Below, in pieces: positions 1,996 to 43,663 of a stretch of 60,892 nt of DNA. Within the stretch, counting starts at the first letter, position 1; the number at the start of each line of letters is the position of its first letter. This DNA is from a virus (taxonomy: Duplodnaviria > Heunggongvirae > Uroviricota > Caudoviricetes): IMG/VR virus record IMGVR_UViG_3300045988_133230; one strand, given 5' to 3'. The notes beneath the pieces were generated by a model, which saw nothing but the letters and a program-made list of their open reading frames with translations, had not been told where the DNA came from and searched no databases. Both the position numbers and the translations under genes were made by a program.

Positions 1996-2076
1996 GCGTA
2001 CGCAAAAACTATTGTATCGTGTTAAGAGTGGTTACTTCGCCACACAGCTTAAACCCGCCGTCGAGCGGGTTTTGTC
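1996..2076 (+). promoter_or_regulatory. late-operon leader (pR'/qut-like) with hairpin terminator 2051-2076
   Basis: About 80 bp near-identical to 45118-45196 upstream of the second lysis cassette; GC hairpin aaacccgc/gcgggttt followed by T-rich tract. Confidence 0.6.
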
Positions 2077-2224
2077 GTCTCTGGGGCTGGGGATTCGTTG
2101 GTCCTGGCCTATTCCGCAGTTATCCATTGGCTCGGCTTCTTTGACGTTTCCGCTTCTGATTTGCGGTACATGATGTTCCCTCAATTTGCACCTGCTGTAT
2201 CAGCGAGGTGAGAGATAACTACAA

Positions 2225-2554: not shown

Positions 2555-3031
2555 ATGCAGGCACTAAATTCCCAGCGTAAAGCTTTCCTCGATATGGTGG
2601 CATGGTCAGAAGGAACGGATAACGGACGGCAGAAAACCAGAAATCATGGTTATGACGTCATTGTAGGCGGAGAGCTATTTACTGATTACTCCGATCACCC
2701 TCGCAAACTTGTCACGCTAAACCCCAAACTCAAATCAACAGCCGCCGGACGTTATCAGCTTCTTTCACGCTGGTGGGATGCTTACCGTAAACAGCTTGGT
2801 TTGAAAAACTTCTCCCCCAAAAGCCAGGACGCAGTGGCATTGCAGCAGATTAAAGAGCGTGGCGCTTTACCGATGATTGATCGCGGTGATATCCGTCAGG
2901 CTATTGATCGTTGCAGCAATATCTGGGCGTCGTTACCTGGTGCAGGTTACGGTCAGTATGAACATAAAATCGGTGACCTGATTTCCCGGTTTAAAGAGGC
3001 TGGTGGGGTGGTAAATGAAGTTGAGCTATAA
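2555..3031 (+). CDS. R: endolysin, lambda R-like lytic transglycosylase
   Basis: 158 aa; N-terminal MxALNSQRKAFLDMxAWSEGTDNGRQKT matches lambda R from memory. Confidence 0.85.
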   Translation: MQALNSQRKAFLDMVAWSEGTDNGRQKTRNHGYDVIVGGELFTDYSDHPRKLVTLNPKLKSTAAGRYQLLSRWWDAYRKQLGLKNFSPKSQDAVALQQIKERGALPMIDRGDIRQAIDRCSNIWASLPGAGYGQYEHKIGDLISRFKEAGGVVNEVEL

Positions 3032-3449
3032 GCTGGTTATCTCTGCTTTCTTCGTTACTGTCATTGGTTCTTTCATCTGGTCAGCCAACCACTACTACAG
3101 CAAATATCAGTACGAAAAGAAACGTGCTGATGAAGCTGTACAAAATGCCAAATTGGCAACTGCCATTACCAATAACGTCCTGCAATCACTGCAAATTGTC
3201 AATACAGTACTGGAGGCTAACCAGCATGCAAAACAGCAGATCGCACTGGAGTCACAGAGAACCCAGGAAGATATCAAAATGGCTGTTGCGGATGATGATT
3301 GTGCTTCACGTCCTGTGCCTGCTGCCGCTGCTGACCGGTTGCGGAAGTACGCGGACAGTTTACGTAACAGTACCTCCAATTCCGCTTCCAGCTACTCTGA
3401 CTTTGGAAACACCAGTACCGCACATACCCGATACTCTGACCTATGGTGA
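3015..3449 (+). CDS. Rz: i-spanin Rz
   Basis: N-terminal TM then coiled-coil-like sequence; overlaps endolysin stop; contains embedded lipoprotein ORF. Confidence 0.75.
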   Translation: MKLSYKLVISAFFVTVIGSFIWSANHYYSKYQYEKKRADEAVQNAKLATAITNNVLQSLQIVNTVLEANQHAKQQIALESQRTQEDIKMAVADDDCASRPVPAAAADRLRKYADSLRNSTSNSASSYSDFGNTSTAHTRYSDLW

Positions 3450-24586: not shown

Positions 24587-24708
24587 TAATTCCCCATTGC
24601 TTCCCCGTTCAGAAAACAGGCAAAAAAACCAGCCGTAACAGGCTGGTTCTTCGAGGATTTTTGGTCGGCACGAGAGGATTTGAACCTCCGCCCCCCGACA
24701 CCCCATAG
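24587..24708. repeat. 122-bp direct repeat copy 1 (tRNA 3' fragment plus terminator)
   Basis: About 97 percent identical to 25757-25879 by manual alignment. Confidence 0.85.
24662..24708 (-). other. tRNA-Pro-like 3' fragment (att-type remnant, not a complete gene)
   Basis: Reverse complement reads ...GGAGGTTCAAATCCTCTCGTGCCGACCA: T-arm, G72, A73 discriminator, CCA; no D-arm or 5' acceptor strand present. Confidence 0.65.
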
Positions 24709-25756: not shown

Positions 25757-25879
25757 TAATTTCCCCATTGCTTCCCCGTTCAGAAAACAGGCAAAAAAAA
25801 CCAGCCGTAACAGGCTGGTTCTTCGAGGATTTTTGGTCAGCACGAGAGGATTTGAACCTCCGCCCCCGACACCCCATAG
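25757..25879. repeat. 122-bp direct repeat copy 2, includes tRNA-Pro-like 3' fragment 25834-25879
   Basis: See copy 1; four point or length differences. Confidence 0.85.
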
Positions 25880-27764: not shown

Positions 27765-28907
27765 CTATGCTGTTTTGATATCTACGATAATCCAGTCTTT
27801 ACCACGATCATCATTGTATCGGTCGGTCATTTTTCTGGATTTATGGCCTAACAACTTTTGCGTATCCAGACCCTGTTCCCGATATAACCGTTCTGACAGA
27901 GATCGCTGCTCATGAAATGTGGGCGCAGTTCCTTGCTCCCATTTTATGCCACATTTTTCCCTGGCCTTTTTAAAAGCCGTTGTCAGAGTATTCGCAGAAA
28001 CCTGGTCTCCTCTGTTTGCTTGAGAGGTTGTGTGACGGTAATGGACCAGATATTTACTAACAACAGCATCCCTGCACTGAGATATAACTTCACGAAGGGT
28101 AATATTCAGAGCATCGCATTTCAGGTTAAGCGGAATAGCAAGTTTTGAACCGGTTTTTTCCTGAGTAATGTGCAACATGTCGTCCCAGATATCAGAGAAT
28201 TTCAAATTGCAGATATCGCCTAAACGTTGTCCAGTGACAAGAGCAAGTAGCATCCCACATTTTAAATAGGGCTGCCGTCTGCTTACGCTGTCAAATATTG
28301 CCTGCCATTCGGGCAGTGATAATCTTTGGCGGTTTACTCGATTTCGCGGTTGTTTTGTTGCCTGCGCTGGGTTAAATCCTGGCGGAACATGTCCTGCGTG
28401 TTGTGCTTCTTTGAAGACGTCGATTAACACCATTCTCACGACTTGCGCCATCCTGTTATGACCTTCAGCCTTTACAGCATCAATTATTTCGGCAATATCA
28501 AGTGCGGTAATATCCTTGAGGTGTTGCATTCCACAATGCTCACGGAAAAGACGAATGGGTTTGCCTTTTTGCCGATAGGAGTTGGGTCTTAGTTCATTAT
28601 GTTGCAGCCTGTCCTCCTGGATAGAAATATATTTATCAAGCCATTCTGTCACCGTAATGTCTGAGCGCCTGCCTTTCATTCTTTCCAGACGCTCATTGAC
28701 GCTTAATATTTGTCGGGTACGTTGTTCAGCAATAATGATATTTGCTTCAGTAGCAACTTGTTTTGCTTCATTCTCATCAGTTCCTAAGCTATGAAAACGA
28801 CCGGATAGTGGATGTTTGTATTGCCAATATACCTTTCCGGTTCGCTTATCTAATTTGCAATATAAATTGGGTATAGAGATTTTGTGAGATCGGGGTCTAG
28901 CAGCCAT
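27765..28907 (-). CDS. int: tyrosine integrase (e14 IntE-like, icd-targeting)
   Basis: 380 aa with C-terminal R...HxxR...Y catalytic region (LLGHKSRKMTDRY); adjacent to icd fragment. Confidence 0.9.
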   Translation of the reverse strand: MAARPRSHKISIPNLYCKLDKRTGKVYWQYKHPLSGRFHSLGTDENEAKQVATEANIIIAEQRTRQILSVNERLERMKGRRSDITVTEWLDKYISIQEDRLQHNELRPNSYRQKGKPIRLFREHCGMQHLKDITALDIAEIIDAVKAEGHNRMAQVVRMVLIDVFKEAQHAGHVPPGFNPAQATKQPRNRVNRQRLSLPEWQAIFDSVSRRQPYLKCGMLLALVTGQRLGDICNLKFSDIWDDMLHITQEKTGSKLAIPLNLKCDALNITLREVISQCRDAVVSKYLVHYRHTTSQANRGDQVSANTLTTAFKKAREKCGIKWEQGTAPTFHEQRSLSERLYREQGLDTQKLLGHKSRKMTDRYNDDRGKDWIIVDIKTA

Positions 28908-29133
28908 CAGCGATTATCCGTTGGAGTTTTGGGTTTGCGTTTATTGGGAGTTGCGGTTCTGCAAGCGTTCCTACAAAACGGGAATTTCGGTCAATCATCC
29001 AGTAGCGACCAACTTTTATAGCGGGTGGGGCCATCATTTTCCCTTGCGCGTATTTTTTCAGAACTCGCTCACTTGGTGCTAAGTCCCCAAATTCTTCTTT
29101 AGCCCAGTCCTGTAAAGTGATTAGTCGAGACAT
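28897..29133 (-). CDS. xis: excisionase
   Basis: 78 aa, overlaps int start; MSRLITLQDW... Xis-like winged helix. Confidence 0.7.
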   Translation of the reverse strand: MSRLITLQDWAKEEFGDLAPSERVLKKYAQGKMMAPPAIKVGRYWMIDRNSRFVGTLAEPQLPINANPKLQRIIADGC

Positions 29134-29272
29134 TTGTCCTCCTCTTAGCTGCTGAGGGAGTTTGTGACCGATATATCTGACATGATATTAAGCTCATGGC
29201 AGGTACATCTCTTGACTGGTCATAGAGATAAATTTAATGCTGAGAAATGCAGTATTGAATTTATCAATTTTT

Positions 29273-29512
29273 CTATTTCCTGCGTATGGCACGTAACTTC
29301 TTAATGTGTTCTGCCGTTTCGATCTCTTCTGCTATCCGATCTGCATCAGCTTTATTCACAGGTTCAAAGTCATGATTAAAGCGGAACATGCTGGCGATAC
29401 ATGTTCTGCCTTTTCGGATGTAGTGAACTTTGTTGTGGGTAGAACGCAGGATTTTGCAGGGAGTGCCGTGGTGGTCGACGTACCAGGTGTTAGGAAAAAT
29501 GATTCTGAACAT
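29273..29512 (-). CDS. hypothetical protein
   Basis: 79-aa ORF in early-left region. Confidence 0.4.
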   Translation of the reverse strand: MFRIIFPNTWYVDHHGTPCKILRSTHNKVHYIRKGRTCIASMFRFNHDFEPVNKADADRIAEEIETAEHIKKLRAIRRK

Positions 29513-29559
29513 TTTTACACCTCAGTTGGACGATGTTGAAATTTGCTGCTTTGAGGCCA

Positions 29560-29778
29560 TCACAGTCCCCATTGTTTGTTCTTAAGTTCGATCTCCTCCT
29601 GGCAACTTGCACAAGTCCGACAACCCTGAACGGCCAGGCGTCTTCGTTCATCTATCGGATCGCCACACTCACAACAATGAGTGGCAGATATAGCCTGGTG
29701 GTTCAGGCGGCGCATTTTTATTGCTGTGTTGCGCTGTAATTCTTCAATTTCTGATGCTGAATCAATGATGTCTGCCAT
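29560..29778 (-). CDS. TraR/DksA-family C4 zinc-finger protein
   Basis: CCECG...x17...CRTCASC four-Cys motif. Confidence 0.6.
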   Translation of the reverse strand: MADIIDSASEIEELQRNTAIKMRRLNHQAISATHCCECGDPIDERRRLAVQGCRTCASCQEEIELKNKQWGL

Positions 29779-29876
29779 CTTTCATTAATCCCTGAATTGT
29801 TGGTTAATACGCTTGAGGGTGAATGCGAATAATAAAAAAGGAGCCTGTAGCTCCATGATGATTTTGTTTTTCATGT

Positions 29877-30158
29877 TCACCGTTCCTTAAAGACGCCGTT
29901 TAACATGCCGATCGCCAGGCTTAAATGAGTCGGTGTGAATCCCATCAGCGTTACCGTTTCGCGGTGCTTCTTCAGTACGCTACGGCAAATGTCATCGACG
30001 TTTTTATCCGGAAACTGCTGTCTGGCTTTTTTGATTTCATAATTAGCCTGACGGGCAATACTGCGAAGGGCGTTTTCTTGCTGAGGTGTCATTGAACAAG
30101 TCCCATGTCGGCAAGCATAAGCACACAGAATATGAAGCCCGCTGCCAGAAAAATGCAT
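29877..30158 (-). CDS. small early protein (lambda orf61-like); true start possibly ATG at 30092
   Basis: Position and size in lambda b-region equivalent. Confidence 0.45.
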   Translation of the reverse strand: MHFSGSGLHILCAYACRHGTCSMTPQQENALRSIARQANYEIKKARQQFPDKNVDDICRSVLKKHRETVTLMGFTPTHLSLAIGMLNGVFKER

Positions 30159-30168
30159 TCAGTGGTTG

Positions 30169-30360
30169 TCATACCTGGTCTCTCTCATCTGCTTCTGCTT
30201 TCGCCACCATCATTTCCAGCTTTTGTGAAAGGGATGTGGCTAACGTATGAAATTCTTCGTCTGTTTCTACTGGTATTGGCACAAACCTGACTCCAATTTG
30301 AGCGAGGCTATGTGCCATCTCGATACTCGTTCTTAACTCAACGGGAGATGCTTTGTGCAT
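30169..30360 (-). CDS. small early protein (lambda orf63-like)
   Basis: 63 aa [19 protein letters not shown]...; recalled similarity to lambda orf63. Confidence 0.5.
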   Translation of the reverse strand: MHKASPVELRTSIEMAHSLAQIGVRFVPIPVETDEEFHTLATSLSQKLEMMVAKAEADERDQV

Positions 30361-30521
30361 ACAGCCCCTCGTTTATTATTTATCTCCTCAGCCAGCCGCT
30401 GGGCTTTCAGTGGATTTTGGATAACAGAAAGGCCGGGAAATACCCAGCCTCGCTTTGTAACGGAGTAGACGAAAGTGATCGCGCCTACCCGGATATTATC
30501 GTGAGGATGCGTCATCGCCAT
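30333..30521 (-). CDS. small early protein (lambda orf60a-like)
   Basis: 62-aa ORF immediately upstream of exo stop. Confidence 0.4.
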
Positions 30522-31192
30522 TGCTCCCCAAATACAAAACCAATTTCAGCCAGTGCCTCGTCCATTTTTTCGATGAACTCCGGCACCATCTCGTCAAAAC
30601 TCGCCATGTACTTTTCATCCCGCTCAACCACGACATAATGCAGTCCTTCACGCTTCATACGCGGGTCATAGTTGGCAAAGTACCAGGCATCTTTTCGCGT
30701 CACCCACATGCTGTACTGCACCTGGGCCATGTAAGCCGACTTTATGGCCTCGAAACCACCGAGCCGGAACTTCATGAAATCCCGGGAGGTAAACGGGCAT
30801 TTCAGCTCAAGGCCATTGCCGTCACTGCATAAACCATCGGGAGAGCAGGCGGTGCGCATACTTTCGTCGCGATAGATGATCGGGGATTCAGTAACATTCA
30901 CGCCGGAAGTGAATTCAAACAGGGTTCTGGCGTCGTTCTCGTACTGTTTTCCCCAGGCCAGCGCCTTAGCATTAACTTCCGGAGCCACACCGGTGCAAAC
31001 CTCAGCCAGCAGGGTGTGGAAGTAGGACATTTTCATGTCAGGCCACTTCTTTCCTGAGCGGGGCTTTGCTATCACGTTGTGAACTTCTGAAGCGGTGATG
31101 ACGCCGAGCCGTAATTTGTGCCATGCATCATCCCCCTGTTCGACAGCTCTCACGTCGATCCCGGTACGCTGCAGGATAATGTCCGGTATCAT
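30512..31192 (-). CDS. exo: lambda exonuclease (Red alpha)
   Basis: 226 aa, near-identical to lambda Exo as recalled. Confidence 0.95.
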
Positions 31193-31974
31193 GCTGCCGC
31201 CTTCTGCTCAGTGGCTTTCTGTTTCAGGAATCCAAGAGCTTTCACTGCTTCGGCCTGTGTCAGTTCTGACGATGCGCGAATGTCGCGGCGAAATATCTGG
31301 GAACAGAGCGGCAATAAGTCGTCATCCCATGTTTTATCCAGGGCGATCAGCAGAGTGTTAATCTCCTGCATGGTTTCATCGTTAACCGGAGTGATGTCGC
31401 GTTCTGGCTGACGTTCTGCAGTGTATGCAGTATTTTCGACAATGCGCTCGGCTTCATCCTTGTCATAGATACCAGCAAATCCGAAGGCGAGACGGGCACA
31501 CTGAATCATGGCTTTATGCCGTAACATCCGTTTGGGATGCGACTGCCACGGGCCGGTGATTTCTCTGCCTTCGCGGGTTTTGAATGGTTCGCGGCGGCAT
31601 TCATCCATCCACTCGGTAACGCAGATCGGATGATTACGGTCCTTGCGGTAAATCCGGCATGTACAGGATTCATTGTCCTGCTCAAAGTCCATGCCATCAA
31701 ACTGCTGGTTTTCATTGATGATGCGGGACCAGCCATCAACGCCCACCACCGGAACGATGCCGTTCTGCTTATCAGGGAAGGCGTAAATTTCTTTCGTCCA
31801 CGGATTAAGGCCGTACTGGTTGGCGACGATCAACAATGCGATGAACTGCGCATCGCTGGCATCGCCTTTAAATGCTGTCTGGCGAAGAGTGGTGATCAGT
31901 TCCTGTGGGTCGACAGAATCCATGCCGACACGTTCAGCCAGCTTCCCTGCCAGCGTTGCGAGTGCTGTACTCAT
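31189..31974 (-). CDS. bet: Red beta single-strand annealing protein
   Basis: 261 aa, near-identical to lambda Bet as recalled. Confidence 0.95.
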
Positions 31975-31979
31975 CCGTT

Positions 31980-32276
31980 TTATACCTCTGAATCAATATC
32001 AACCTGATGGTGAGCAATGGTTTCAACCATGTACCGGATGTGTTCTGCCATGCGCTCCTGAAACTCAACATCGTCATCAAACGCACGGGTAATGGCTTTT
32101 TTGCTGGCCCCGTGGCGTTGCAAATGATCGATGCAGAGTGATTCAAACAGGTGCTGGGACAGACCCTTTTCCATGTCGTCTGCCAGTTCTGCCTCTTTCT
32201 CTTCACGGGCGATCTGCTGGTAGTGACGTGCCCAGCTCTGAGCCTCAAGACGATCCTGAATGTAATAAGCGTTCAT
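31980..32276 (-). CDS. gam: Gam (RecBCD inhibitor), short form
   Basis: 98 aa [21 protein letters not shown]...; in-frame stop upstream precludes the long form. Confidence 0.9.
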
Positions 32277-32351
32277 GGCTGAACTCCTGAAAATGGCTGT
32301 GAAAATATCGCCCGCGAAATGCCCGGCTGATTAGGAAAACAGGAAAGGGGA

Positions 32352-32762
32352 TTAGTGATTGAGGCCGTTACCGCGTCCGTCGAGAAAAACTTCCACGAGC
32401 AAATCACGGGTATAAGTGCGCTCGATGCCGCGATGCAGATAAAGCCGTCCGCGTAAATTAGCTGATGCAGTCCAGGTACCATCTTTGTGTTTGACCAGCA
32501 TTCCTGGCATGACCGCACCTCGATTAACGGTCTGCGTTCCGTAATGTTGATGAACCATAAAAACTCCTGCCCGTAAGCTGGGCTGCTGAACATATAGAGA
32601 CTTCTGCGCGTATTCAGGCGGTGGATGGCCGCCGGTTGTCATAACTAAGCCGCCTCGTTGAAGCGACTGAGGTATGAGGTGTTGAGTTGATTTCAGCTGG
32701 TCACACCGACGTTCACGCGTCCGCTTCACCCCTCGCACTCCCCGGAGCCTGCTGAAATTCAA
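32352..32762 (-). CDS. hypothetical early-left protein in N position (start uncertain)
   Basis: Frame opens with TTG; first ATG at 32642 (MTTGG...); arginine-rich stretch KRTRERR upstream of that ATG. Confidence 0.4.
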
Positions 32763-33000
32763 GCTGCGGATCTAAGCGGTCATCGCAACGGTGAATCAGG
32801 TGATTGCCGTATCGTTGTGTTGTTGCGACATGGTGATAATAGCTATTGCTATTGACTATATCAATACTTATTGCTATTGATTGATGTGTTTTGATATTAA
32901 CTGTTTGATAGCAAAAAGAATTAATTTTGTGACTTGCATCGCATAGCGATAACTGAAGCGAGGTCGTGGTGGTTTTTTGAACGGTTTATGTGATGAGGGG
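32763..33000. promoter_or_regulatory. OL/pL-type control region
   Basis: Non-coding; three GCTATTG heptamers (32842, 32848, 32873), the same motif as in the cI-cro intergenic region. Confidence 0.5.
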
Positions 33001-33002
33001 AG

Positions 33003-33032
33003 GCAAAAGAAAACCCGGCACGACGGCCGGGG
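33003..33032 (-). terminator. intrinsic terminator after the cI-linked ORF
   Basis: Minus strand CCCGGC-CGTCGT-GCCGGG hairpin followed by TTTTCTTTT. Confidence 0.6.
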
Positions 33033-33035
33033 AAA

Positions 33036-33899
33036 TCATTTCGCATCTACAATAAATAACCTGTTTATCTGGCCTTTTTTAACAGTAGCCTTTGCGGTTA
33101 TAGTGAATACTGCAGATGGATCACCTTTGGTTGATATATATGCACTAAGAGCTCTAATATACGGGTTATTCTTCTTTCCTGCAGCTGGATCGCTAATTTC
33201 AGCAGTGATTCTCTTTTTTGAGTCATCACCATCTAAAATTATTTTAGCTGTCATATTTTGTGCATCAAATTCTGTAAGAAAAGCACGATACTCACGAAGA
33301 CCGAGAACTTCATCATCATCAAGCCTATCAATTTCAGCTTTATCTCTCTCGTTAACTTTTAGAAGGCAGCCGTCAACATTTGTTGCAACACTTATCTGAT
33401 CGCAAGTATTACCAATAGGTGATACTGCCTGCCTTACAGAGGGGCGAAGCTCTACAGCCATTCGGTCAATCAAAGAGATCAACTTATCAATGGTTCCAGC
33501 ATCCTTGTTTCCTAGTGCCTCTATGGCCTTTTCAAGTGACTGCTGCAAAGCTTTCATTTCATCTTTCTTGTTAGAATTTCTCGCAAAAATATATTGTAGT
33601 ATTGCGCCAAGTATAGTTGCGGCGATCCCCGAGAACAACTGGTTCTGAGTGGCGAAGTTAAGAACTGCTTCAAGAGTAAAGCAGTTAGCTTTTGCTTCGC
33701 GTGCGTAAACCTTAACTTCCTGATAATTAATGTATTTACTATATTTTTGTGTAACAGAGAAAGAAGCTGCTGTTGAGAGAACTTTAGAAAAACCCTTTAG
33801 GGATTCTCCTAGGCAGTTCAAATCTATTTCATGATTTAAAGCATCTTTTCCGTCATACCTAAGAGAGATTTTTATATCCTGTAAAGCGTCACAATCCAT
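33036..33899 (-). CDS. hypothetical 287-aa protein downstream of cI (rexAB slot)
   Basis: AT-rich ORF 66 bp downstream of cI stop, same strand, own terminator; one internal hydrophobic segment. Confidence 0.55.
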
Positions 33900-33965
33900 A
33901 AATCGCTCTCGTCTAATTCTAATTAAATTTACTATCCCCTAAACGACTCATCAGCACAGTACTGA

Positions 33966-34658
33966 TTATCCATGTTTCCTGTACGTCTGGGGCATGCTCC
34001 CAATAACCTTACCGAAGATGAACACCCGGTTCATCTCGTCTTTCTCGATCGGGTCCCACGGTGAGTAGCTCTTGTTATCAGAGATAACCAGCAGCTTATC
34101 CTTCATCATTTGCAGGCGCTTTACATGGGCGGTGTCGTCGTACAGAAACGCATAGATGCCATCACCGTCGAAAGATTTAACCGTGATATCAACGAACAGA
34201 AGATCACCAGGTTCAATCGTTCCTGACATGCTGTCACCGCGTACGTTAATGATGCGGATATTTTCTGCCTTCCTACCATCGAACATGTGACGAGCATCGT
34301 CAAACGAGTACTCAACCGAGCGTAGAACTTCTACAAACTCACGGTTGATGACTCCCGGCCCGGCACTCACTTCTATATCAAGAACGTCAATCTTGAAGTA
34401 TTTGGGATGGTTGGCAGTAGGCTTCCCTAATTGTTGACCGTCATTTCTCATCGGGCCTATGCCTGATGAGAGCCACTCTGTTCGAACACCCAATGCATTA
34501 GCTATTTCAACAATTTTTGTTGAGCCGCGCGCGTTGCCGCTTGTCAGTCTCCAGATTGTGGGTTGAGCTACGCCAGACGCCTTTGCAAGAGCGCCTTGAG
34601 ACATTCCAGATTGTTCCATCGCTAGGTTTAAGCGATCAGCAAGAGTTTCTTTTTTCAT
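33966..34658 (-). CDS. cI: CI-type repressor (HTH plus S24 LexA-like peptidase domain)
   Basis: HTH (QGALAKASGVAQPTIWRL), Ser-Lys dyad (GDSM...K); start placed at ATG 34658 (ORF track TTG at 34694). Confidence 0.85.
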   Translation of the reverse strand: MKKETLADRLNLAMEQSGMSQGALAKASGVAQPTIWRLTSGNARGSTKIVEIANALGVRTEWLSSGIGPMRNDGQQLGKPTANHPKYFKIDVLDIEVSAGPGVINREFVEVLRSVEYSFDDARHMFDGRKAENIRIINVRGDSMSGTIEPGDLLFVDITVKSFDGDGIYAFLYDDTAHVKRLQMMKDKLLVISDNKSYSPWDPIEKDEMNRVFIFGKVIGSMPQTYRKHG

Positions 34659-34768
34659 AAGTTTTAATTTATACGCTTGCGTATTGATGGTCAAAACACG
34701 TTTTGCTATTGCTGTGATTAATACGCATTGCTATTATTTATTCATTGTAATACCAATAGGAATTAATA
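34659..34768. promoter_or_regulatory. OR / pRM-pR divergent control region
   Basis: 14-bp perfect palindrome ATACGCTTGCGTAT (34671-34684) and GCTATT(G) repeats at 34705 and 34730 between divergent cI and cro. Confidence 0.6.
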
Positions 34769-34996
34769 ATGACAAATCAAACCATTCAACTCGCAATCAG
34801 TATTACAGGTAGTCAAAAACGACTGGCAGATCTATGCGGTGTAGCCCAGCCCACTGTTTGGCGTTGGCTACACGGTGGCGGAATTGATGCCCGCTATGTA
34901 ATGAAAATTGTCTCAGCCACTGGTGGAAAGATTAAACCAGCAGATATTCGTCCCGACCTCGCACCATTGTTTAACGCGAGTAATTCTGCCGCCTAA
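34769..34996 (+). CDS. cro: Cro-type HTH regulator
   Basis: 75 aa, HTH, divergent from cI. Confidence 0.75.
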   Translation: MTNQTIQLAISITGSQKRLADLCGVAQPTVWRWLHGGGIDARYVMKIVSATGGKIKPADIRPDLAPLFNASNSAA

Positions 34997-35020
34997 TCTG
35001 CGGCGTTAACTGATAAGGCA

Positions 35021-35566
35021 ATGACTATGCAACCACTTACATACCAACAGACTAGCGGATTTAGCCCGACTGCGGTGATAAATCGTTCTCAAACAAAACA
35101 GGCGCCAGGCCACGAAAAAATCCGTGATGCCGTTCGCGCCTGGTCGGCTGCAGATAATCAGGATGTTGTTGCCGCACTCATTGTGAATGAGTATCGGGAG
35201 CAGGGCGGCGGCACCATCGATTTCCCTGATGATGTCAGCCGTGCACGCCAGAAGCTGTTCCGCTTCCTCGATAACAAATTCGATTCTGAAAAATACCGAA
35301 ATAACGTGCGTGAACTGACCCCGGCAATTCTGGCGGTACTACCGCTGGAATATCGCGGCCACCTGGTTGAGCAGGATAGCTTCATGGCTCGGCTGGCTGA
35401 AATGGAAAAGGAACTCAGTGAGGCAAAACAGGCTGTCATTCTCAACGCACCACGCCACCAGAAACTGAAGGAGATGAGTGAAGGCATTGTGTCGATGTTT
35501 CGTGTGGACCCGGATCTGGCTGGTCCACTGATGGCGATGGTCACCACCATGCTGGGGGCAATATGA
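35021..35566 (+). CDS. regulatory protein in cII position (181 aa)
   Basis: Gene order cro - this ORF - O; longer than lambda cII. Confidence 0.5.
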   Translation: MTMQPLTYQQTSGFSPTAVINRSQTKQAPGHEKIRDAVRAWSAADNQDVVAALIVNEYREQGGGTIDFPDDVSRARQKLFRFLDNKFDSEKYRNNVRELTPAILAVLPLEYRGHLVEQDSFMARLAEMEKELSEAKQAVILNAPRHQKLKEMSEGIVSMFRVDPDLAGPLMAMVTTMLGAI

Positions 35567-35652
35567 CAGGTTCGGAAATGGCGAAAGCCGGTCTGCGCGA
35601 ACAGAACCGACTTTCAGGTGCAAATCGTAACACACTCATTGCGGGAGGAATT

Positions 35653-36582
35653 ATGGCAAACACTGCTGAGATATTCAATTTTCCAGTGCCGGATGTGGCA
35701 CAAAAGGAGCCGCGCGTGGCAGATCTCGATGATGGTTATACGCGCATTGCAAATGAGTTGCTGGAAGCTGTGATGCTGGCCGGATTAACACAGCACCAGC
35801 TTCTGGTCTTCCTGGCTGTCATGCGCAAAACATATGGCTTTAATAAAAAACTGGATTGGGTGAGCAACGAGCAACTTTCCGAGTTGACCGGGATATTGCC
35901 GCACAAGTGTTCTGCTGCAAAAAGTGTTCTGATAAAGCGTGGGATTTTTATTCAGAGCGGGCGGAATATCGGCATTAATAATGTGGTCAGTGAATGGTCA
36001 ACATTACCCGAATCAGGTAAGAAAAATAAAGTTTACCTGAAAGAGGTAAATTTACCTGAATCAGGTAAGAAAAGTTTACCCAAATCAGGTAAAGACGTTT
36101 ACCCGAATCAGGTAAACACAAAAGACAAACTAACAAAAGACAATATAAAACCTTTTTCGTCCGAGAATTCTGGCGAATCCTCTGACCAGCCAGAAAACGA
36201 TCTTCCTGTGGTGAAACCGGATGCTGCAATTCAGAGCGGCAGCAAGTGGGGGACAGCAGAAGACCTGACCGCCGCAGAGTGGATGTTTGACATGGTGAAG
36301 ACCATCGCGCCATCAGCCAGAAAACCGAATTTTGCAGGGTGGGCTAACGATATCCGCCTGATGCGTGAACGTGACGGACGTAACCACCGCGACATGTGTG
36401 TACTGTTCCGCTGGGCATGCCAGGACAACTTCTGGTCCGGTAACGTGCTAAGTCCGGCCAAACTCCGCGACAAGTGGACCCAACTCGAAATCAACCGTAA
36501 CAAGCAACAGGCTGGCGTGACAGCCGGAAAATCAAAACTCGACCTGACAAACACTGACTGGATTTATGGGGTGGATTTATGA
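35653..36582 (+). CDS. O: replication initiator O
   Basis: MANTAEIFNF...ADLDDGY resembles lambda O N-terminus; contains iterons; upstream in-frame ATG at 35563 possible. Confidence 0.8.
   Translation: MANTAEIFNFPVPDVAQKEPRVADLDDGYTRIANELLEAVMLAGLTQHQLLVFLAVMRKTYGFNKKLDWVSNEQLSELTGILPHKCSAAKSVLIKRGIFIQSGRNIGINNVVSEWSTLPESGKKNKVYLKEVNLPESGKKSLPKSGKDVYPNQVNTKDKLTKDNIKPFSSENSGESSDQPENDLPVVKPDAAIQSGSKWGTAEDLTAAEWMFDMVKTIAPSARKPNFAGWANDIRLMRERDGRNHRDMCVLFRWACQDNFWSGNVLSPAKLRDKWTQLEINRNKQQAGVTAGKSKLDLTNTDWIYGVDL
36004..36115. repeat. origin iterons (four TTACCCGAATCAGGTAA-type 17-mers plus one degenerate) within O
   Basis: Copies at 36004, 36052, 36076, 36099 (degenerate 36032), followed by an A-rich tract. 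Confidence 0.8.
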
Positions 36583-37280
36583 AAAACATCGCCGCACAGA
36601 TGGTTAACTTTGACCGTGAGCAGATGTGCCGGATCGCCAATAACATGCCGGAACAGTACGACGAAAAGCCGCAGGTACAGCAGGTAGCGCAGATCATCAA
36701 CGGTGTGTTCAGCCAGTTACTGGCAACTTTCCCGGCGAGTCTGGCTAACCGGGACCAGAACGAACTGAACGAAATCCGCCGCCAGTGGGTTCTGGCTTTC
36801 CGGGAAAACGGGATCACCACAATGGAACAGGTTAACGCAGGAATGCGCGTAGCCCGTCGGCAGAATCGACCATTCCTGCCATCACCCGGGCAGTTTGTTG
36901 CCTGGTGTCGGGAAGAAGCATCCGTTACCGCCGGGCTGCCAAACGCCAGCGAGCTGGTTGATATGGTTTACGAGTATTGCCGGAAGCGTGGCCTTTATCC
37001 GGATGCAGAGTCTTATCCATGGAAATCAAACGCGCATTACTGGTTGGTTACCAACCTGTATCAGAACATGCGAGCCAATGCGCTGACTGACGCGGAATTA
37101 CGGCGCAAGGCTGCCGATGAACTGACCTGTATGACAGCGCGAATTAACCGTGGTGAGGCTATACCTGAACCAGTAAAACAAATTCCTGTCATGGGCGGTA
37201 GACCTCTAAATCGTGCACAGGCTCTGGCGAAGATCGCAGAAATCAAAGCTAAGTTTGGGCTGAAAGGAGCAAGAGTATGA
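36579..37280 (+). CDS. P: replication protein P (DnaB loader)
   Basis: 233 aa, near-identical to lambda P as recalled. Confidence 0.9.
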   Translation: MKNIAAQMVNFDREQMCRIANNMPEQYDEKPQVQQVAQIINGVFSQLLATFPASLANRDQNELNEIRRQWVLAFRENGITTMEQVNAGMRVARRQNRPFLPSPGQFVAWCREEASVTAGLPNASELVDMVYEYCRKRGLYPDAESYPWKSNAHYWLVTNLYQNMRANALTDAELRRKAADELTCMTARINRGEAIPEPVKQIPVMGGRPLNRAQALAKIAEIKAKFGLKGARV

Positions 37281-37579
37281 CGGGCAAAGAGGCAATTATT
37301 CATTACCTGGGGACTCATAAGAACTTCTGTGCGCAGGACGTTGCCGCGGTAACAGGCGCAACCGTAACCAGCATAAATCAGGCTGCGGCTAAAATGGCGC
37401 GGGCAGGAATCCTGGTCGTTGATGGTAAGGTCTGGCGAACGGTGTATTATCGGTTCGCTACCAGAGAAGAACGGGAAGGAAAGGTGAGCGCGAATTTGAT
37501 TTTTAAGGAGTGTCGCCAGAGTGCCGCGATGAAACGGGTATTGAGGGTATATAAAAGAACATCAATGGGTACACAATGA
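37277..37579 (+). CDS. ren: Ren
   Basis: MTGKEAIIHYLGTH... matches lambda Ren. Confidence 0.8.
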   Translation: MTGKEAIIHYLGTHKNFCAQDVAAVTGATVTSINQAAAKMARAGILVVDGKVWRTVYYRFATREEREGKVSANLIFKECRQSAAMKRVLRVYKRTSMGTQ

Positions 37580-37646
37580 TGAAACAGGTGAGTTGAGTTC
37601 AAACTGTAGTACAATTCTCTCCAGTTTGAACAGGAAAGAATATGCT

Positions 37647-37979
37647 ATGAACCCTTATATTTATCTTGGTGGTGCAATACTTGCAGAGGTCATTGGTACA
37701 ACCTTAATGAAGTTTTCAGAAGGTTTTACACGGTTATGGCCATCTGTTGGTACAATTATTTGTTATTGTGCATCATTCTGGTTATTAGCTCAGACGCTGG
37801 CTTATATACCTACAGGGATTGCTTATGCTATCTGGTCAGGAGTCGGTATTGTCCTGATTAGCATACTATCATGGGGATTTTTCGGCCAACGGTTGGACCT
37901 GCCAGCCATTATAGGCATGATGTTGATTTGTGCCGGTGTGTTGGTTATTAATTTATTGTCACGAAGCACACCACATTAA
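37647..37979 (+). CDS. emrE: small multidrug resistance efflux protein EmrE
   Basis: 110 aa MNPYIYLGGAILAEVIGTTLMKFSEGF... matches EmrE (a DLP12 prophage gene in K-12); start at internal ATG 37647. Confidence 0.9.
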   Translation: MNPYIYLGGAILAEVIGTTLMKFSEGFTRLWPSVGTIICYCASFWLLAQTLAYIPTGIAYAIWSGVGIVLISILSWGFFGQRLDLPAIIGMMLICAGVLVINLLSRSTPH

Positions 37980-38234
37980 AAATAATTTATTTTTAAACGA
38001 CTAAAATATGGAGGTTCGTATATTTGTATGGGCCTCGTTTTATGCTTTTTGTTAATGTCTTTAGTTTTTATTCATTCTTTTGAACTTTCAAGATTATGGT
38101 GTAAGAAAATTGCAATACGATTATTGTTGTATATTCAAGATAATGTGACCTTAATTGTCTTTTTAAATAAAAATTAAACAAAAATCATATCTCACCACTA
38201 AGGTTTATAAAAGCATACTTTAGCAGGTGTCACC

Positions 38235-39761
38235 ATGAAAAAAGCCATAGCATATATGCGATTTTCATCACCAGGTCAGATGTCTGGTGATTCATTAAAC
38301 CGCCAGAGAAGGCTTATTACTGAATGGCTAAAGGTAAATAGTGATTATTACCTTGATACCGTAACGTATGAAGATTTGGGGTTAAGCGCATTCAATGGAA
38401 AGCATGCACAATCAGGAGCTTTTTCGGAATTTTTAGATGCTATAGAACATGGTTACATATTGCCAGGGACTACATTGTTAGTTGAAAGTCTGGACAGACT
38501 TTCAAGAGAAAAAGTCGGTGAAGCGATTGAGCGTCTGAAATTGATTTTGAATCACGGTATTGATGTTATAACTCTTTGCGATAATACAGTCTATAATATA
38601 GACTCATTGAATGAGCCATATTCATTAATAAAAGCCATACTTATAGCACAAAGGGCAAATGAAGAAAGCGAGATAAAGTCAAGTCGGGTTAAATTATCAT
38701 GGAAGAAAAAACGGCAGGATGCACTGGAATCAGGCACGATTATGACGGCGTCTTGTCCGAGATGGCTCTCATTGGATGACAAAAGAACAGCTTTTATTCC
38801 AGACCCCGACAGGGTGAAAACGATTGAGCTAATTTTTAAACTCAGGATGGAAAGGCGATCATTGAATGCAATAGCTAAGTATTTAAATGATCATGCTGTA
38901 AAAAATTTTTCAGGAAAAGAAAGTGCATGGGGGCCTTCTGTAATTGAAAAATTATTAGCGAATAAAGCTCTGATAGGTATATGCGTACCTTCATATCGTG
39001 CAAGAGGGAAAGGGATAAGTGAAATCGCTGGCTATTATCCCAGAGTCATATCAGATGATTTGTTTTACGCTGTACAGGAAATTCGGTTGGCACCTTTTGG
39101 TATTAGCAATAGTAGCAAGAATCCTATGCTAATAAATCTACTTCGAACAGTTATGAAGTGTGAGGCTTGTGGTAATACCATGATTGTTCATGCGGTATCT
39201 GGACGTTTGCATGGCTATTATGTTTGTCCGATGAGAAGATTACATCGATGTGACAGGCCATCAATAAAAAGAGATTTGGTTGATTATAATATCATTAATG
39301 AATTGCTTTTTAATTGTAGCAAAATTCAACCAGTTGAAAACAAGAAAGATGCTAATGAAACTTTAGAGTTAAAAATTATTGAGCTTCAGATGAAAATTAA
39401 TAATTTAATCGTTGCATTGTCTGTCGCGCCTGAAGTTACCGCTATAGCAGAGAAAATAAGACTATTAGATAAGGAATTACGAAGGGCTTCGGTATCATTA
39501 AAAACTTTGAAGAGTAAAGGGGTGAGTTCACTTGGTGATTTTCATGCTATTGATTTAACTAGTAAAAATGGGCGAGAGCTATGTCGTACACTTGCCTATA
39601 AAATATTCGAAAAAATTATAATTAATACAGATAATAAAACCTGTGATATCTATTTTATGAATGGCATTGTTTTTAAACACTATCCTTTAATGAAAGTAAT
39701 ATCCGCCCAGCAGGCGATAAGCACTCTTAAATATATGGTTGATGGTGAGATTTATTTTTGA
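38235..39761 (+). CDS. ybcK: large serine recombinase (YbcK-like)
   Basis: Resolvase N-terminal catalytic region (YMRFSSPGQ...SLDRLSR), Cys-rich zinc ribbon; AT-rich. Confidence 0.75.
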   Translation: MKKAIAYMRFSSPGQMSGDSLNRQRRLITEWLKVNSDYYLDTVTYEDLGLSAFNGKHAQSGAFSEFLDAIEHGYILPGTTLLVESLDRLSREKVGEAIERLKLILNHGIDVITLCDNTVYNIDSLNEPYSLIKAILIAQRANEESEIKSSRVKLSWKKKRQDALESGTIMTASCPRWLSLDDKRTAFIPDPDRVKTIELIFKLRMERRSLNAIAKYLNDHAVKNFSGKESAWGPSVIEKLLANKALIGICVPSYRARGKGISEIAGYYPRVISDDLFYAVQEIRLAPFGISNSSKNPMLINLLRTVMKCEACGNTMIVHAVSGRLHGYYVCPMRRLHRCDRPSIKRDLVDYNIINELLFNCSKIQPVENKKDANETLELKIIELQMKINNLIVALSVAPEVTAIAEKIRLLDKELRRASVSLKTLKSKGVSSLGDFHAIDLTSKNGRELCRTLAYKIFEKIIINTDNKTCDIYFMNGIVFKHYPLMKVISAQQAISTLKYMVDGEIYF

Positions 39762-40110
39762 GTAATAATCACTTTTTCAACCGTGCTATGGTATGAAAGT
39801 AAAGTAACTACTATGATATTAACTATCTTGAACGAAGCGCCCTGAGCTATAGTTTTACTATAGGCACTGCCACTGGATGTTGGCATTCTCGCTCTAGTAG
39901 CTCAACAATACCCAATCACAAAACAATTCACTGATAACAAACTTTGTGCACGTGCTTAGTTATGGCGAACAGGTGATGTTAACCTCCTGCCAGAATGCCA
40001 CTCCACTTCATTAAGTATCTGAGCACCGAGAGGCTGGTCACGCCCCCATTAAAAATAATTTCTTTTGAATCGAGTGAAATAGGTTAGCCCGCATAAGTGC
40101 GGGCTGCTTT

Positions 40111-41154
40111 TTACAGGTCAGCGTTTGTTTTTTGTTGTTGGGTAGCGGTTTTTATGGGGGTTCCCAGGTTTTTAGTAAACCACTCAACAACTCTGTTTAT
40201 AATAATTGGCTGATACCATGTATTATCACCATGCTCAGCCCCTTCTACCAGAACGTACTCAGCGTTATCGCCGTTCTTCTTCAACATCCTGAATAGTTTG
40301 GCGCTTTGCTCAGGTGAAACCAGAGTGTCTTTGCTACCATGCATAATAAGAAATGGGGGTTTTACTCCTTTCATATGTCCGATTGGACTGGCGTTTAGCG
40401 CTTTTTCTTTTGACGCTGTGATGGGGGCTCCCGCAAAATTTCTGAATGCAGGGCCATTGATCATTAAGGCTTCGGTTACGGCAGGAGAGCGATGAACCTC
40501 CTGCACTGATTCAGGGAACCCCTCGCCAATATTCAACAAGTCAGAAATCCCATAAAGTGTGGCAACTGCCTGAACATCTGAGGATTGCTGAAGAAAGTCA
40601 CCTTTATCAAAGGTTTTGTCACCATTTGTAGTTCCCATCATCTGAGCAAGCCATCCACCGGCAGAGTCACCCAGAACTCCGATTCTTTGAGGATCAATCC
40701 CATAATTGCTGGCATGCTCTCTCAGGTAACGTATTGCAGCTTTTCCATCCTCAACTGGTGCTGGAAATGTATCAGGAATTGTTCTGTATTCTACAGCGGC
40801 CACAACAAAACCAGCTTCTGCCAGAGCCATTCTCATTTCAATAAATTTGTCATGTTCAGAAGACATGAATCCGCCGCCGGGATAATAAATAATGGCTGGT
40901 TTTAAATCATTTGTTCGCGGGACAAGAACTGACATGTGAAGCTGTCTGACAGAACGAGTTCCTTTTATCTGGGAATAAACAACATCACCAATGAGATCGA
41001 CCTGGTTTCTGGTCGGTGAAACACTAATGATATCTGCACCCGGGGTGTAACCAGGAAGATTAGTCTGGACAGGTGTTGCACAACTCCCGACCGACATGGC
41101 CATTGACATACCATACAATAGTGTTGCAGATGATAATATCTTGTTAATTTTCAT
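40111..41154 (-). CDS. alpha/beta-hydrolase esterase/lipase, predicted lipoprotein
   Basis: Signal peptide ending VGSC, oxyanion motif YPGGGF, nucleophile elbow GDSAGG. Confidence 0.7.
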   Translation of the reverse strand: MKINKILSSATLLYGMSMAMSVGSCATPVQTNLPGYTPGADIISVSPTRNQVDLIGDVVYSQIKGTRSVRQLHMSVLVPRTNDLKPAIIYYPGGGFMSSEHDKFIEMRMALAEAGFVVAAVEYRTIPDTFPAPVEDGKAAIRYLREHASNYGIDPQRIGVLGDSAGGWLAQMMGTTNGDKTFDKGDFLQQSSDVQAVATLYGISDLLNIGEGFPESVQEVHRSPAVTEALMINGPAFRNFAGAPITASKEKALNASPIGHMKGVKPPFLIMHGSKDTLVSPEQSAKLFRMLKKNGDNAEYVLVEGAEHGDNTWYQPIIINRVVEWFTKNLGTPIKTATQQQKTNADL

Positions 41155-41601
41155 GTTTTACATGCCTTGACTTATCGGATGAAATTCTCTTACTGAATTT
41201 AACGGCAGTTTAATAGCCGTACAACTCGTGGTAGCCAGGGAAATATCCCAGTCGTGGTTAAGGTTGTACTTGACGGCTATTATTTCAACAATGCTTAAAG
41301 TGAGAGCTTAAGGTTATGCGTATGTTTTACAGTCCGAGTAGATTCTGACCAATAGCTTCTTTGTATAATTCTGTCAGAAATAAATCTTGGCTTGCATGAA
41401 GTTTGAGACCTTATCTTGTTTGATTATGAATAATCAATTCGCCATAATTGTATCACCGGAGCCTGAACAACTCCGGTGACTTCTGCGCTAAACGGGGACG
41501 TTTATGCGCACACACAATCCAAACTCTCTTCTCCCTTCACAGATGCAGAAATGCACCTGCGTTTTTTTGCATCCAGCGTCTGACCTCTGTGGAGGTGAAG
41601 C

Positions 41602-42057
41602 GTGAACCTACCACAAGATGGCATCAAACTGCATCGCGGTAACTTCATCGCTATCGGCCAGCAGATCCAGCCTTATCTGGAGAACGGAAAATGCTTTCGC
41701 ATGGTGCTTAAACCGTGGCGTGAGAAACGCAGTCTTTCCCAGAATGCACTCAGCCACATGTGGTACAGCGAAATCAGTGAATACCTCATCAGCAGGGGGA
41801 AATCGTTCGCTACCGCAGCATGGGTAAAAGATGCTCTCAAACACACATACCTCGGTTATGAAACCAAGGACCTGGTTGATGTCGTAACCGGCGAAATCAC
41901 TACTATCCAGTCGTTACGCCATACCTCCGATCTCGATACCGGAGAGATGTATGTCTTCCTGTGTAAGGTTGAAGCCTGGGCGGTGAATATTGGCTGCCAC
42001 CTGACTATTCCGCAGAGCTGCGAGTTCCAGCTGCTGCGCGACAAGCCGGAGGCGTAA
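41602..42057 (+). CDS. ybcN: YbcN-like nin-region protein
   Basis: 151 aa in nin region upstream of ninE. Confidence 0.6.
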
Positions 42058-42228
42058 TGGCTACACCGCTTATTCGTGTCATGAACGGACACATCTACAG
42101 AGTACCAAATCGTCGTAAGCGTAAGCCTGAGCTGAAACCATCCGAAATACCAACACTGCTCGGATATACCGCCAGCCTGGTTGATAAAAAATGGTTGCGA
42201 CTGGCAGCAAGGAGGAATCATGGCTGAT
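42058..42228 (+). CDS. ninE: NinE
   Basis: 56-aa [27 protein letters not shown]... found by me (below ORF-track size cutoff). Confidence 0.6.
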
Positions 42229-42510
42229 TTGAGAAAAGCAGCACGTGGTCGGGAATGCCAGGTAAGAATCCCTGGCGTATGTAATGGCAATCCTGAAACG
42301 TCAGTACTGGCACATATCCGGCTGGCTGGATTGTGCGGCACCGGTATTAAACCGCCAGACCTTATTGCCACCATTGCATGTTCTGACTGTCACGACGAGA
42401 TCGACCGTCGCACGCATTTTGTTGACGCTGGATATGCAAAAGAATGCGCGCTGGAAGGTATGGCGAGAACGCAGGTTATCTGGCTGAAAGAGGGGGTAAT
42501 TAAGGCGTGA
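42220..42510 (+). CDS. ybcO: YbcO-like Cys-rich nin-region protein
   Basis: 96 aa from ATG 42220; Cys/His cluster. Confidence 0.65.
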
Positions 42511-42869
42511 ATACTTACCATATCACACTACCCTGGCCGCCGAGCAATAATCGCTATTACCGCCATAATCGTGGGCGCACGCACGTCAGCGCAGAGGGGC
42601 AAGCATACCGCGATAATGTCGCCCGAATCATTAAAAACGCAATGCTGGATATCGGCCTGGCTATTCCTGTGAAAATCAGCATTGAGTGCCACATGCCGGA
42701 TCGCCGTCGCCGTGACCTTGATAATCTGCAAAAGGCCGCTTTTGACGCACTCACCAAAGCAGGTTTCTGGCTGGATGATGCTCAGGTCGTTGATTACCGC
42801 GTTGTGAAGATGCCCGTTACCAAAGGTGGGAAGCTGGAGCTGACCATCACCGAAATGGGGAATGAATGA
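42507..42869 (+). CDS. rusA: Holliday junction resolvase RusA
   Basis: 120 aa [18 protein letters not shown]... Confidence 0.9.
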
Positions 42870-43006
42870 TATTTGAGTTTTATATGGCAGAACGTCTTCG
42901 CCACCGCTGGATGCGCCTGCGCTTATATCGTTTTCCTGGTTCTGTTTTGGCCGATTACCGGATACTGAAGAATTACGCCAAAACACTGAAAGGAGCATGT
43001 GTATGA
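42866..43006 (+). CDS. ylcG: YlcG-like small protein
   Basis: 46-aa ORF overlapping rusA stop (ATGA). Confidence 0.45.
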
Positions 43007-43655: not shown

Positions 43656-43663
43656 AAGTCAGA

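Follow-up and report, generated by a model that had tools for sequence, protein, structure and literature searches.

A shared late leader behind Q-type-specific boxes in two adjacent lambda-like prophages: a probable control module of short Q21-family antiterminators

The viral DNA record IMGVR_UViG_3300045988_133230 (Caudoviricetes; 60,892 nucleotides, the whole of which is termed the window here) holds two adjacent lambda-like prophages, A and B, both of which carry a near-identical late leader in front of their lysis genes. This repeat is a real, non-chance copy of an ordinary and very widespread phage control module. We consider it probable that each copy represents a late-gene control module, composed of a pR'-type promoter, a leader and a tR'-type terminator, that serves short QuuD-like antiterminators (Qs) of the PF06530 family. 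As judged from the sequences collected here, the module appears to have two cleanly separable parts, a box specific to the Q type and a universal leader running from a -10-like hexamer to the terminator, which we regard as a modestly new point; another would be that a separate sigma pause element seems to be missing. The finding as such is ordinary, since two lambdoid prophages sharing a late leader are expected from mosaicism.

Extent and identity of the repeat

A repeat search of the window returned a single direct-repeat family of the late-leader kind, in which positions 1997–2073 align gap-free with 45119–45195 over 77 nt at 88% identity. Its core, 2020–2073 against 45142–45195, is identical at 53 of 54 positions, the sole difference being C2040 versus T45162, and the longest perfect run between the copies measures 33 nt (2041–2073; 45163–45195). 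These values confirm the near-identical late leader that a first-pass annotation of this DNA had described for both prophages. They also show that identity is not limited to the terminator hairpin, which is the outcome that the annotation had named as refuting it: identity reaches 31 nt upstream of the hairpin, and the near-identical 54 nt start at the last base of the -10-like hexamer.

The hairpin alone resembles many terminators and draws weak Rfam matches to unrelated small RNAs, as might be expected if the repeat were a chance similarity or a generic element, such as a terminator hairpin or a repetitive extragenic palindromic (REP)-like element, unrelated to late-gene control. We assign this reading virtually no probability, as it is refuted by the repeat search, the shuffles and the recurrence across phages. 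The 53/54 identity compares with zero by chance: with up to three mismatches allowed, the 54-nt core occurs exactly twice in the window and has no match across 100 shuffles. Identity continues beyond the hairpin, and the only two window copies each lie between a Q gene and a holin gene, a context that recurs in hundreds of phages.

Conservation between the two copies changes along the module. In the 60 nt upstream of the repeat, segment-wise alignment of copy A with copy B gave similarity at the shuffled level. Box and spacer (1996–2014) are identical at 15 of 19 positions with gaps, or 12 of 19 ungapped by hand count, the hexamer (2015–2020) at 4 of 6, and the stretch from the hexamer end to the T tract (2021–2073) at 52 of 53. 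From the terminator to the holin start codon, 95 of 151 positions agree (63%; shuffled, 85.9 ± 2.9 of 151), pointing to homology that is weak but real, and BLAST aligns copy A with copy-B-type phages across window positions 1997–2210 (~74%, E = 4e-25). The holin genes of the two copies are not alignable. Overall, the leader is far more conserved between the copies than the promoter or the post-terminator region. The single C/T difference is class-typical, with T in 71/71 loci of class B and mostly C in class A (classes are defined below), and hence gives no sign of a recent conversion between the two copies.

The elements of the two copies are as follows.

1991–1996, + strand: -35-like hexamer CTAACG of copy A, predicted and weak (3/6), 18 nt upstream of the TAnnnT hexamer
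1996–2003, + strand: class A box GCGTACGC, followed by an A tract (2004–2008); putative Q-A-type binding element
2015–2020, + strand: TAnnnT hexamer of copy A, TATCGT; best -10 candidate, alternatively a sigma-dependent pause element (SDPE)
2021–2031, + strand: G-n-TAAG-nn-T-G-G box of copy A (TAAGAGT at 2023–2029), containing the start predicted from the hexamer position at about A2027
2027–2073, + strand: predicted leader RNA of copy A, ~47 nt, with a 5' hairpin, the conserved CTTA (2048–2051) and the terminator
2051–2078, + strand: tR'-type terminator of copy A, AAACCCGC (2051–2058), loop CGTCGA, GCGGGTTT (2065–2072), then TGTCGT
2074–2224, + strand: diverged 5' untranslated region of copy A, ending at the holin start and matching copy B at 63%
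45115–45131, + strand: class B box, a 14-bp palindrome TTTACGTACGTAAA (45115–45128) with the core ACGTACGT (45118–45125), running into an A tract
45115–45120, + strand: -35-like hexamer of copy B, TTTACG, which is the left arm of the palindrome, 16 nt from the TAnnnT hexamer
45137–45142, + strand: TAnnnT hexamer of copy B, TATGCT
45143–45153, + strand: G-n-TAAG-nn-T-G-G box of copy B (TAAGAGT at 45145–45151), predicted start at about A45149
45173–45202, + strand: tR'-type terminator of copy B, AAACCCGC (45173–45180), loop CGTCGA, GCGGGTTT (45187–45194), then TTCCATTTTTT

Q types, boxes and distribution of the module

Modules of the copy B type occur in 360 phage records, including PA-2, 434B and many lambdoids, and in 2661 of 5426 complete E. 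coli genomes, among them K-12 with its prophage DLP12. DLP12 (qsr') of K-12, PA-2 and 434B have the same region as copy B (QuuD, nmpC/lc porin, leader, essD), and the box, hexamer, leader and terminator of K-12 are those of copy B. A 281-nt query from copy B matched Nissle 1917 and ATCC 11775 at 100%, PA-2 at 94.7% and 434B at 90.7%. The lysis cassette of DLP12 is reported, as cited in PMC7918800, to be controlled by a Q-type antiterminator. Published dissections of its box, hexamer or leader were not found, the literature on quuD/ybcQ and essD yielded nothing on a Q binding site, and no pR' is annotated in phage 434B. The copy A type is present in SfII and SfIV, and its promoter-leader part alone in the Shiga toxin (Stx) 2a phages 1447 and WGPS2. 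Beyond these, a cross-genus scan seeded on the Q protein, with one genome per species, showed that many other Enterobacterales have this architecture too, namely Xenorhabdus, Photorhabdus, Proteus, Providencia, Yersinia, Pantoea, Erwinia, Citrobacter, Trabulsiella and others.

Three independent collections, seeded on the leader, the class A box and the Q protein, all agree in the order of elements. The upstream half comprises an A-rich tract, yTAnCG or TTTACG, a short palindromic box, an A/T tract and the TAnnnT hexamer; the downstream half consists of G-n-TAAG-n-n-T-G, ~20 variable nt, CTTA and a hairpin with a T tract. Within the hexamer, A at position 2 and T at position 6 are fixed and the rest vary (TATCGT, TATGCT, TAATCT, TACTGT, CAGTAT and others). 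The spacing from box end to hexamer is 11 nt in 217/217 loci from many genera. The conserved block starts ~40 nt upstream of the hexamer and its flanks are unrelated. In some related loci the Q stop codon lies only 9–70 nt from the hexamer, corresponding to the canonical Q–pR' adjacency; others hold 0.5–3 kb of varied cargo between Q and box, always upstream of the box. Downstream, 94 of 130 distinct leaders have a terminator-like hairpin with a T tract that ends 55–75 nt past the hexamer and is formed by 36 different stems. Its position is thus kept while the stem sequence varies, which is the pattern of a working terminator.

The boxes are 8–14 bp long and fall into four classes, all of them palindromic. 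Boxes and predicted recognition helices of the corresponding Qs are:

Class A: box GCGTACGC; recognition helix SDGTIRKELQ
Class B: box (TTT)ACG(T/A)(A/T)CGT(AAA); recognition helix SDG(H/Y)IGK(K/R)LQ
Class III: box GCGG-T-CCGC; recognition helix (D/S)EKxIRIE(I/M)Q
Class IV: box (TT)GTAATTAC(AA)

Class IV was found only in Photorhabdus and Xenorhabdus, whose Qs are 45–55% identical to the query. Across 139/139 distinct Qs, the box class follows the Q cluster, with four classes and none mixed, and the predicted recognition helix is class-specific. This match persists despite 0.5–3 kb of differing cargo between Q and box and despite the shuffling of downstream genes among classes. These patterns suggest that the palindromic box is a putative Q-specific recognition element.

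The window contains one Q gene per prophage:

1–333, + strand: Q-A, 5'-truncated PF06530 antiterminator, from the Pfam match and comparison with intact genes
43092–43475, + strand: Q-B, intact QuuD-like PF06530 antiterminator, 127 aa from MRDVQ

Both genes lie upstream of the lysis genes on the same strand as the late genes, and both exceed the PF06530 cut-off of 26 bits by far (Q-B, 180 bits, E = 1.5e-53; Q-A fragment, 114 bits, E = 5e-33). Similarity of Q-A to intact Q genes sets in at base 11, bases 1–10 (TAACCTATCA) being unrelated and 1–3 an in-frame TAA. The gene has lost at least 14 N-terminal codons, among them those for the invariant MRD...RWGAW, and one conserved W is replaced by C. 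The junction partner of this truncation lies outside the window.

From the shared qut/pR' region, the first-pass annotation had concluded that the two Qs have the same specificity, and it had proposed comparing the two proteins. The comparison does not bear this conclusion out. Q-A and Q-B are 43% identical and carry class-specific recognition helices (SDGTIRKELQ in Q-A), Q-A is truncated, and the part shared between the copies is the universal leader, whereas the boxes differ: copy A has the class A box GCGTACGC and copy B the class B box ACGTACGT, with only the centre CGTACG in common. Cross-activation between the prophages, which had been proposed on the same grounds, is possible but not implied by the shared leader. 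It is the box and the recognition helix of Q that would tell whether a Q activates the late genes of another prophage. Prophage A, having lost the 5' end of its own Q, could express its late genes only if Q-B crosses classes; the data argue against such crossing, though not decisively.

The window Qs share their family with Q21 of phage 21. The phage 21 promoter has the -35 element TTGACA along with a Q-binding element (the QBE) composed of two direct subsites that contain TGAGCA, lie 8 bp apart and fall between -35 and -10; transcription starts at an A, the SDPE TAAGCT occupies +2 to +7, the terminator stem begins inside the SDPE, and the leader is ~45 nt long (PMC6606751; bioRxiv 10.1101/651190). 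Phage 21 distances used here were counted by us from annotated genome coordinates. Like the window Qs, Q21 belongs to PF06530 (PDB 6P18/6JNX match, E = 4e-8; hhalign probability 97%, residues 6–87). In both systems an element specific to the Q type, a putative binding site in the window copies, lies just upstream of a TAnnnT-G hexamer, and a very short leader (~45–47 nt, predicted for the window) with an intrinsic terminator precedes an S21-type or other lysis cassette. The distances also agree, as the centre of the downstream TGAGCA subsite lies 15.5 bp from the SDPE and the window box centre 15.5 bp from the hexamer.

The differences are equally clear. Compared with Q21 (162 aa), window-type Qs measure 113–127 aa, are 35–50 residues shorter, and have an ordinary turn in place of the long minor-groove loop of its helix-turn[loop]-helix and no C-terminal tail. 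In contrast to the direct TGAGCA repeats of phage 21, which occur in neither window copy, the element of the short Qs is a palindrome (GCGTACGC, TTTACGTACGTAAA, GCGG-T-CCGC or GTAATTAC). Their module has no consensus -35, its sole good -10-like hexamer is separated from the box by 11 nt, a pause element of its own is not evident, and cargo is often inserted between Q and promoter. Taken together, the short Qs form a distinct short subfamily of the Q21 family with a different kind of site.

The pR'–qut–6S RNA–tR' region of phage lambda follows a logic that the window modules would share: a constitutive promoter, with the Q site inside it, produces a short terminated leader, and Q-modified polymerase reads past tR' into S, R and Rz (PMC6606751, PMC9388147). 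The Q families are unrelated, lambda Q not being a PF06530 protein, and lambda has a clear pause element at +1 to +6 plus a -35-like element, neither of which is evident in the window copies. The lambda leader is 194 nt long.

Start site, terminator and leader RNA

The sequence data show the repeat, its architecture and distribution, the association of Q with box and the conserved terminator position; in the mechanism that we propose, the start site, the binding of Q to the box, the pause element and antitermination itself are inferred. Host RNA polymerase would start at a promoter that combines the TAnnnT hexamer with a weak -35 and an A-rich tract upstream. If Q is absent, the polymerase would produce the ~47-nt leader and stop at the hairpin and U tract, leaving holin, endolysin and other late genes off. 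The cognate Q would recognize the short palindromic box, located between or over the -35 and ending at a distance of 11 bp from the hexamer, join the polymerase before sigma has let go of the -10-like element, and then carry it through the terminator. The box would travel with the Q gene even where cargo is inserted between them, and the leader would be common to all Q types, which would account for its near-identity in the two prophages and for its service as a crossover point at which Q modules are recombined with lysis and structural modules. Box and leader would thus differ in their history.

Within this explanation, it is fairly likely that the hexamer acts as the -10 and that transcription starts at about A2027 and A45149. 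For classes A, B and III, the top score of a sigma-70 weight-matrix scan went to the TAnnnT hexamer. The class B arrangement in all genera seen is TTTACG, 16 nt and TAnnnT behind an A tract; class IV, in our own reading, has TTGTGT or TTGCGT at 17 nt. The A tract would sit at the position of a proximal UP element. Two alternative -10s, TATTGT at 2010–2015 and AAnTAT at 2007–2012, were rejected, being without a -35 and not conserved in classes B and III.

A layout resembling that of phage 21 would instead place the hexamer at +2 to +7 as an SDPE, with the start at about G2014 or 45135–45136. The A/T tract after the box (CAAAAA or TAAAAA) would then be the -10, the leader would be ~60 nt long and the TAAG..TGG box would serve as a pause site. 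This arrangement would supply the pause element that is missing if the hexamer is the -10, and it matches phage 21 in several details. By our own count, box centre to hexamer equals the distance from the centre of the downstream QBE subsite to the SDPE (15.5 bp). A G always follows the hexamer, as in TAAGCTG of phage 21, and one relative has TAAGCT at this place. In our own alignment, the leader would share T2, A3, T7, G8 and AGTG at +14 to +17 with the phage 21 leader, and the -11 position within the A/T tract is an invariant A, the remaining positions being A or T. Nevertheless, we consider this layout rather unlikely. In most members the proposed -10 is without the critical final T, and its score in the weight-matrix scan is 0.1–1.8 bits, far below the 2.2–7.6 bits of the hexamer. 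There is no -35-like sequence 17 bp upstream of it in class B or III, and in many genera the Q coding region covers the would-be -35.

The module might also be an attenuator only, that is, a terminator inside a longer transcript whose promoter would be found elsewhere, be it adjacent to Q, upstream of the cargo or at the start reported for DLP12 as RpoE-dependent. A simple consensus promoter scan detected no canonical promoter at either copy, and the primers and numbering given in PMC7918800 put the start of the DLP12 lysis cassette (Rueggeberg 2015), attributed to RpoE, at K-12 position 576,874. Reconstructed in this way, the start, for which the literature uses a -121 to +650 amplicon, falls at window position ~44794, beside the divergent porin promoter and at a distance of 343 nt upstream of the hexamer. 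As a candidate for the module promoter, the published start was rejected on account of this distance; transcripts from ~44794 would need to pass the terminator at 45173–45196. Several observations disfavor an external promoter. The conserved block consistently has its start ~40 nt upstream of the hexamer, amid unrelated flanks, and where Q abuts the block there is no space for another promoter. A promoter near Q would read antisense through 1–3 kb of minus-strand cargo. Moreover, the hexamer keeps A2 and T6 while the other positions vary, which is a signature of sigma-70 -10 elements. On balance, we judge an attenuator without its own promoter to be improbable.

Several points weigh against the proposed promoter and its control by Q. 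The reconstructed DLP12 start is one of them. No experimental start site or RNA end for the module was found in the literature, and Cappable-seq and 3'-end-mapping supplements list nothing for K-12 577,1xx–577,3xx or essD. The -35 is weak and its spacing to the hexamer depends on the class (16 nt in B, 18 in A, 19 in III). With the hexamer as -10, no TAnnnT-type pause element is conserved in the transcribed leader. Copy A fails a simple terminator scan owing to its short U tract, since only TTTT precedes a G. The short Qs align with Q21 over their first ~85 residues only, the alignment ending at residue ~87–93, so that the DNA-binding mode of Q21 is not simply transferable, and the association between Q and box could partly reflect linkage rather than recognition.

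To our knowledge, every studied Q needs a -10-like sigma pause element. In the modules described here, TAAGnnT lies only 8 bp downstream of the hexamer and spans the predicted start. Tentatively, and with more doubt than assurance, we suggest that the short Qs may load in a compressed way: the palindrome would overlap the -35, the hexamer would be the promoter's own -10, and no separate pause element would exist. Q would then board, dislodging sigma region 4 from the -35 half of the palindrome, at a time when sigma region 2 still grips the -10, or else the overlapping TAAGnnT, and the universal leader would act as an escape or pause platform common to all Q types. With four classes of box, an invariable spacing of 11 nt and no evident pause element, these modules provide natural variants for studying how short members of the Q21 family load onto RNA polymerase.

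The terminator itself is present in both copies. The hairpin AAACCCGC-CGTCGA-GCGGGTTT, at 2051–2072 and 45173–45194, places an intrinsic terminator between the predicted promoter and the late genes; both hairpins fold at z scores of -2.2 to -2.8, and copy B passes the terminator scan. Hairpin and T tract in both copies support the earlier description of a late-gene leader with a tR'-type intrinsic terminator.

The strong conservation of the leader, which exceeds that of promoter and post-terminator region, could alternatively reflect a second job as a trans-acting small RNA. Precedents are StxS of Stx phages and IsrK of Gifsy-1, short transcripts that are terminated right after the Q gene or before late or cargo genes and act as small RNAs (PMC7547250, PMC4825925). 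They occupy the same genomic situation as the window leader, and a possible 5' hairpin followed by a terminator would give the leader a typical small-RNA shape. In copy A, this small hairpin would pair GUGG (2028–2031) with CCAC (2040–2043). The blocks GGTyAC, CAC and CTTA are conserved and not accounted for by the terminator. However, StxS and IsrK are functional analogues, not relatives: the IsrK sequence, taken from the supplement of the paper, is unrelated to the window leader, and StxS goes with a 144-aa Q of another type (PMC7547250) in place of the 113–127 aa PF06530 proteins found here. The middle of the leader varies freely outside E. coli, and no expression data were found.

Searches for RNA structure and families likewise argue against this role. 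The whole window has no Rfam match at gathering level; the best sub-threshold scores are 11–20 bits against thresholds of 37–108. Permissive matches to isrK, isrJ, P9 and Trp leader were rejected as due to the terminator hairpin and A run, with isrK (RF01394) and isrJ (RF01393) at 13 bits against thresholds of 50 and 37. Beyond the terminator there is no stable conserved fold: the combined TAAG:CTTA and GUGG:CCAC fold in the first hairpin region shows no gain in stability over shuffled sequence (mean z -0.2), and a mutual-information covariation scan of the leader revealed no clean helix. Where TAGG replaces TAAG, it always comes together with CCTA (3/3 relatives), a compensatory pattern for a possible TAAG:CTTA pairing, and one TAAG apparently occurs with CCTA. 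Overall, we regard a small-RNA function as unlikely. As a separate observation, TAAG and CTTA lie 21 nt apart (2023–2026 and 2048–2051; 45145–45148 and 45170–45173) and are both nearly invariant.

Exchange between modules and prophage context

The first-pass annotation had viewed the leader as a ready substrate for recombination between prophages, which is reasonable. In the window, the copies are direct repeats 43,122 bp apart with the 33-nt perfect run, and exchange between them would consequently delete everything in between. Across phages, the leader is a mosaic joint, the same first late genes being found behind boxes of class A and of class III. In individual recombinant contigs, a class A box is joined to the leader variant and downstream sequence of copy B, or a class B box is followed by a different downstream sequence. 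The sequenced 434B stock (OL657227) provides a laboratory case of exchange that involves the module: it carries a substitution derived from K-12 DLP12 that comprises a crossover in ylcG, Q, an IS5-disrupted porin, the leader and S21-type lysis genes. In Stx2a phages 1447 and WGPS2, by our reading of layout and BLAST results, a copy-A-type module lies between Q and stx2. In phage 1447, Q and two minus-strand genes precede the module, and a methylase, three tRNAs and stx2 follow it.

The genes surrounding the two modules are:

326–901 and 909–1937 (span 326–1937), - strand: cargo A, two genes with PADLOC PDC-M53 B and A matches
2225–2551, 2555–3031 and 3015–3449, + strand: lysis cassette A, lambda-S-type holin, endolysin and Rz
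43664–44746, - strand: cargo B, nmpC/lc/ompC-type porin
45335–45550, 45550–46047 and 46032–46487, + strand: lysis cassette B, S21-type pinholin, SAR (signal-anchor-release)-type endolysin and Rz

Two further statements of the first-pass annotation are borne out by this list. Lysis cassettes of different types follow the shared leader, with a PF05106 holin of lambda-S type in prophage A and a PF04971 S21 pinholin in prophage B, and in both prophages cargo sits between Q and leader, namely the PDC-M53-like pair in A and the porin in B. The cargo A genes match the PADLOC candidate anti-phage defence system PDC-M53 (A, E = 2e-31; B, E = 1.7e-54) and have no Pfam or NCBIfam match. Stx2a phage 1447 holds a two-gene cargo of like size and strand at the same place.

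Prophage A begins within its own Q gene. Its order is partial Q, two minus-strand genes, leader, lambda-S-type holin, endolysin, Rz, HNH, terminase and structural genes, the last including a Mu-like baseplate. Prophage B is a full-length DLP12-like element with the order int, exo/bet/gam, repressor, O/P, emrE, ybcK, ybcN, ninE, ybcO, rusA, ylcG, quuD, porin, leader, S21-type pinholin, endolysin, Rz and nohD-like terminase. Unlike K-12 DLP12, prophage B (27765–47000, compared with E. coli 82.0311) retains integrase, recombination genes, immunity region and O/P. Further cargo of prophage B comprises emrE, the ybcK recombinase and an alpha/beta hydrolase (40111–41154, - strand).

ARAGORN detected no tRNA in the window, including the prophage junction. 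Near the end of prophage A lies a ~106-nt direct repeat (24590–24695 and 25761–25867; 99–100% identical, 1.17 kb apart) that resembles a tRNA 3' end or an att-type sequence.

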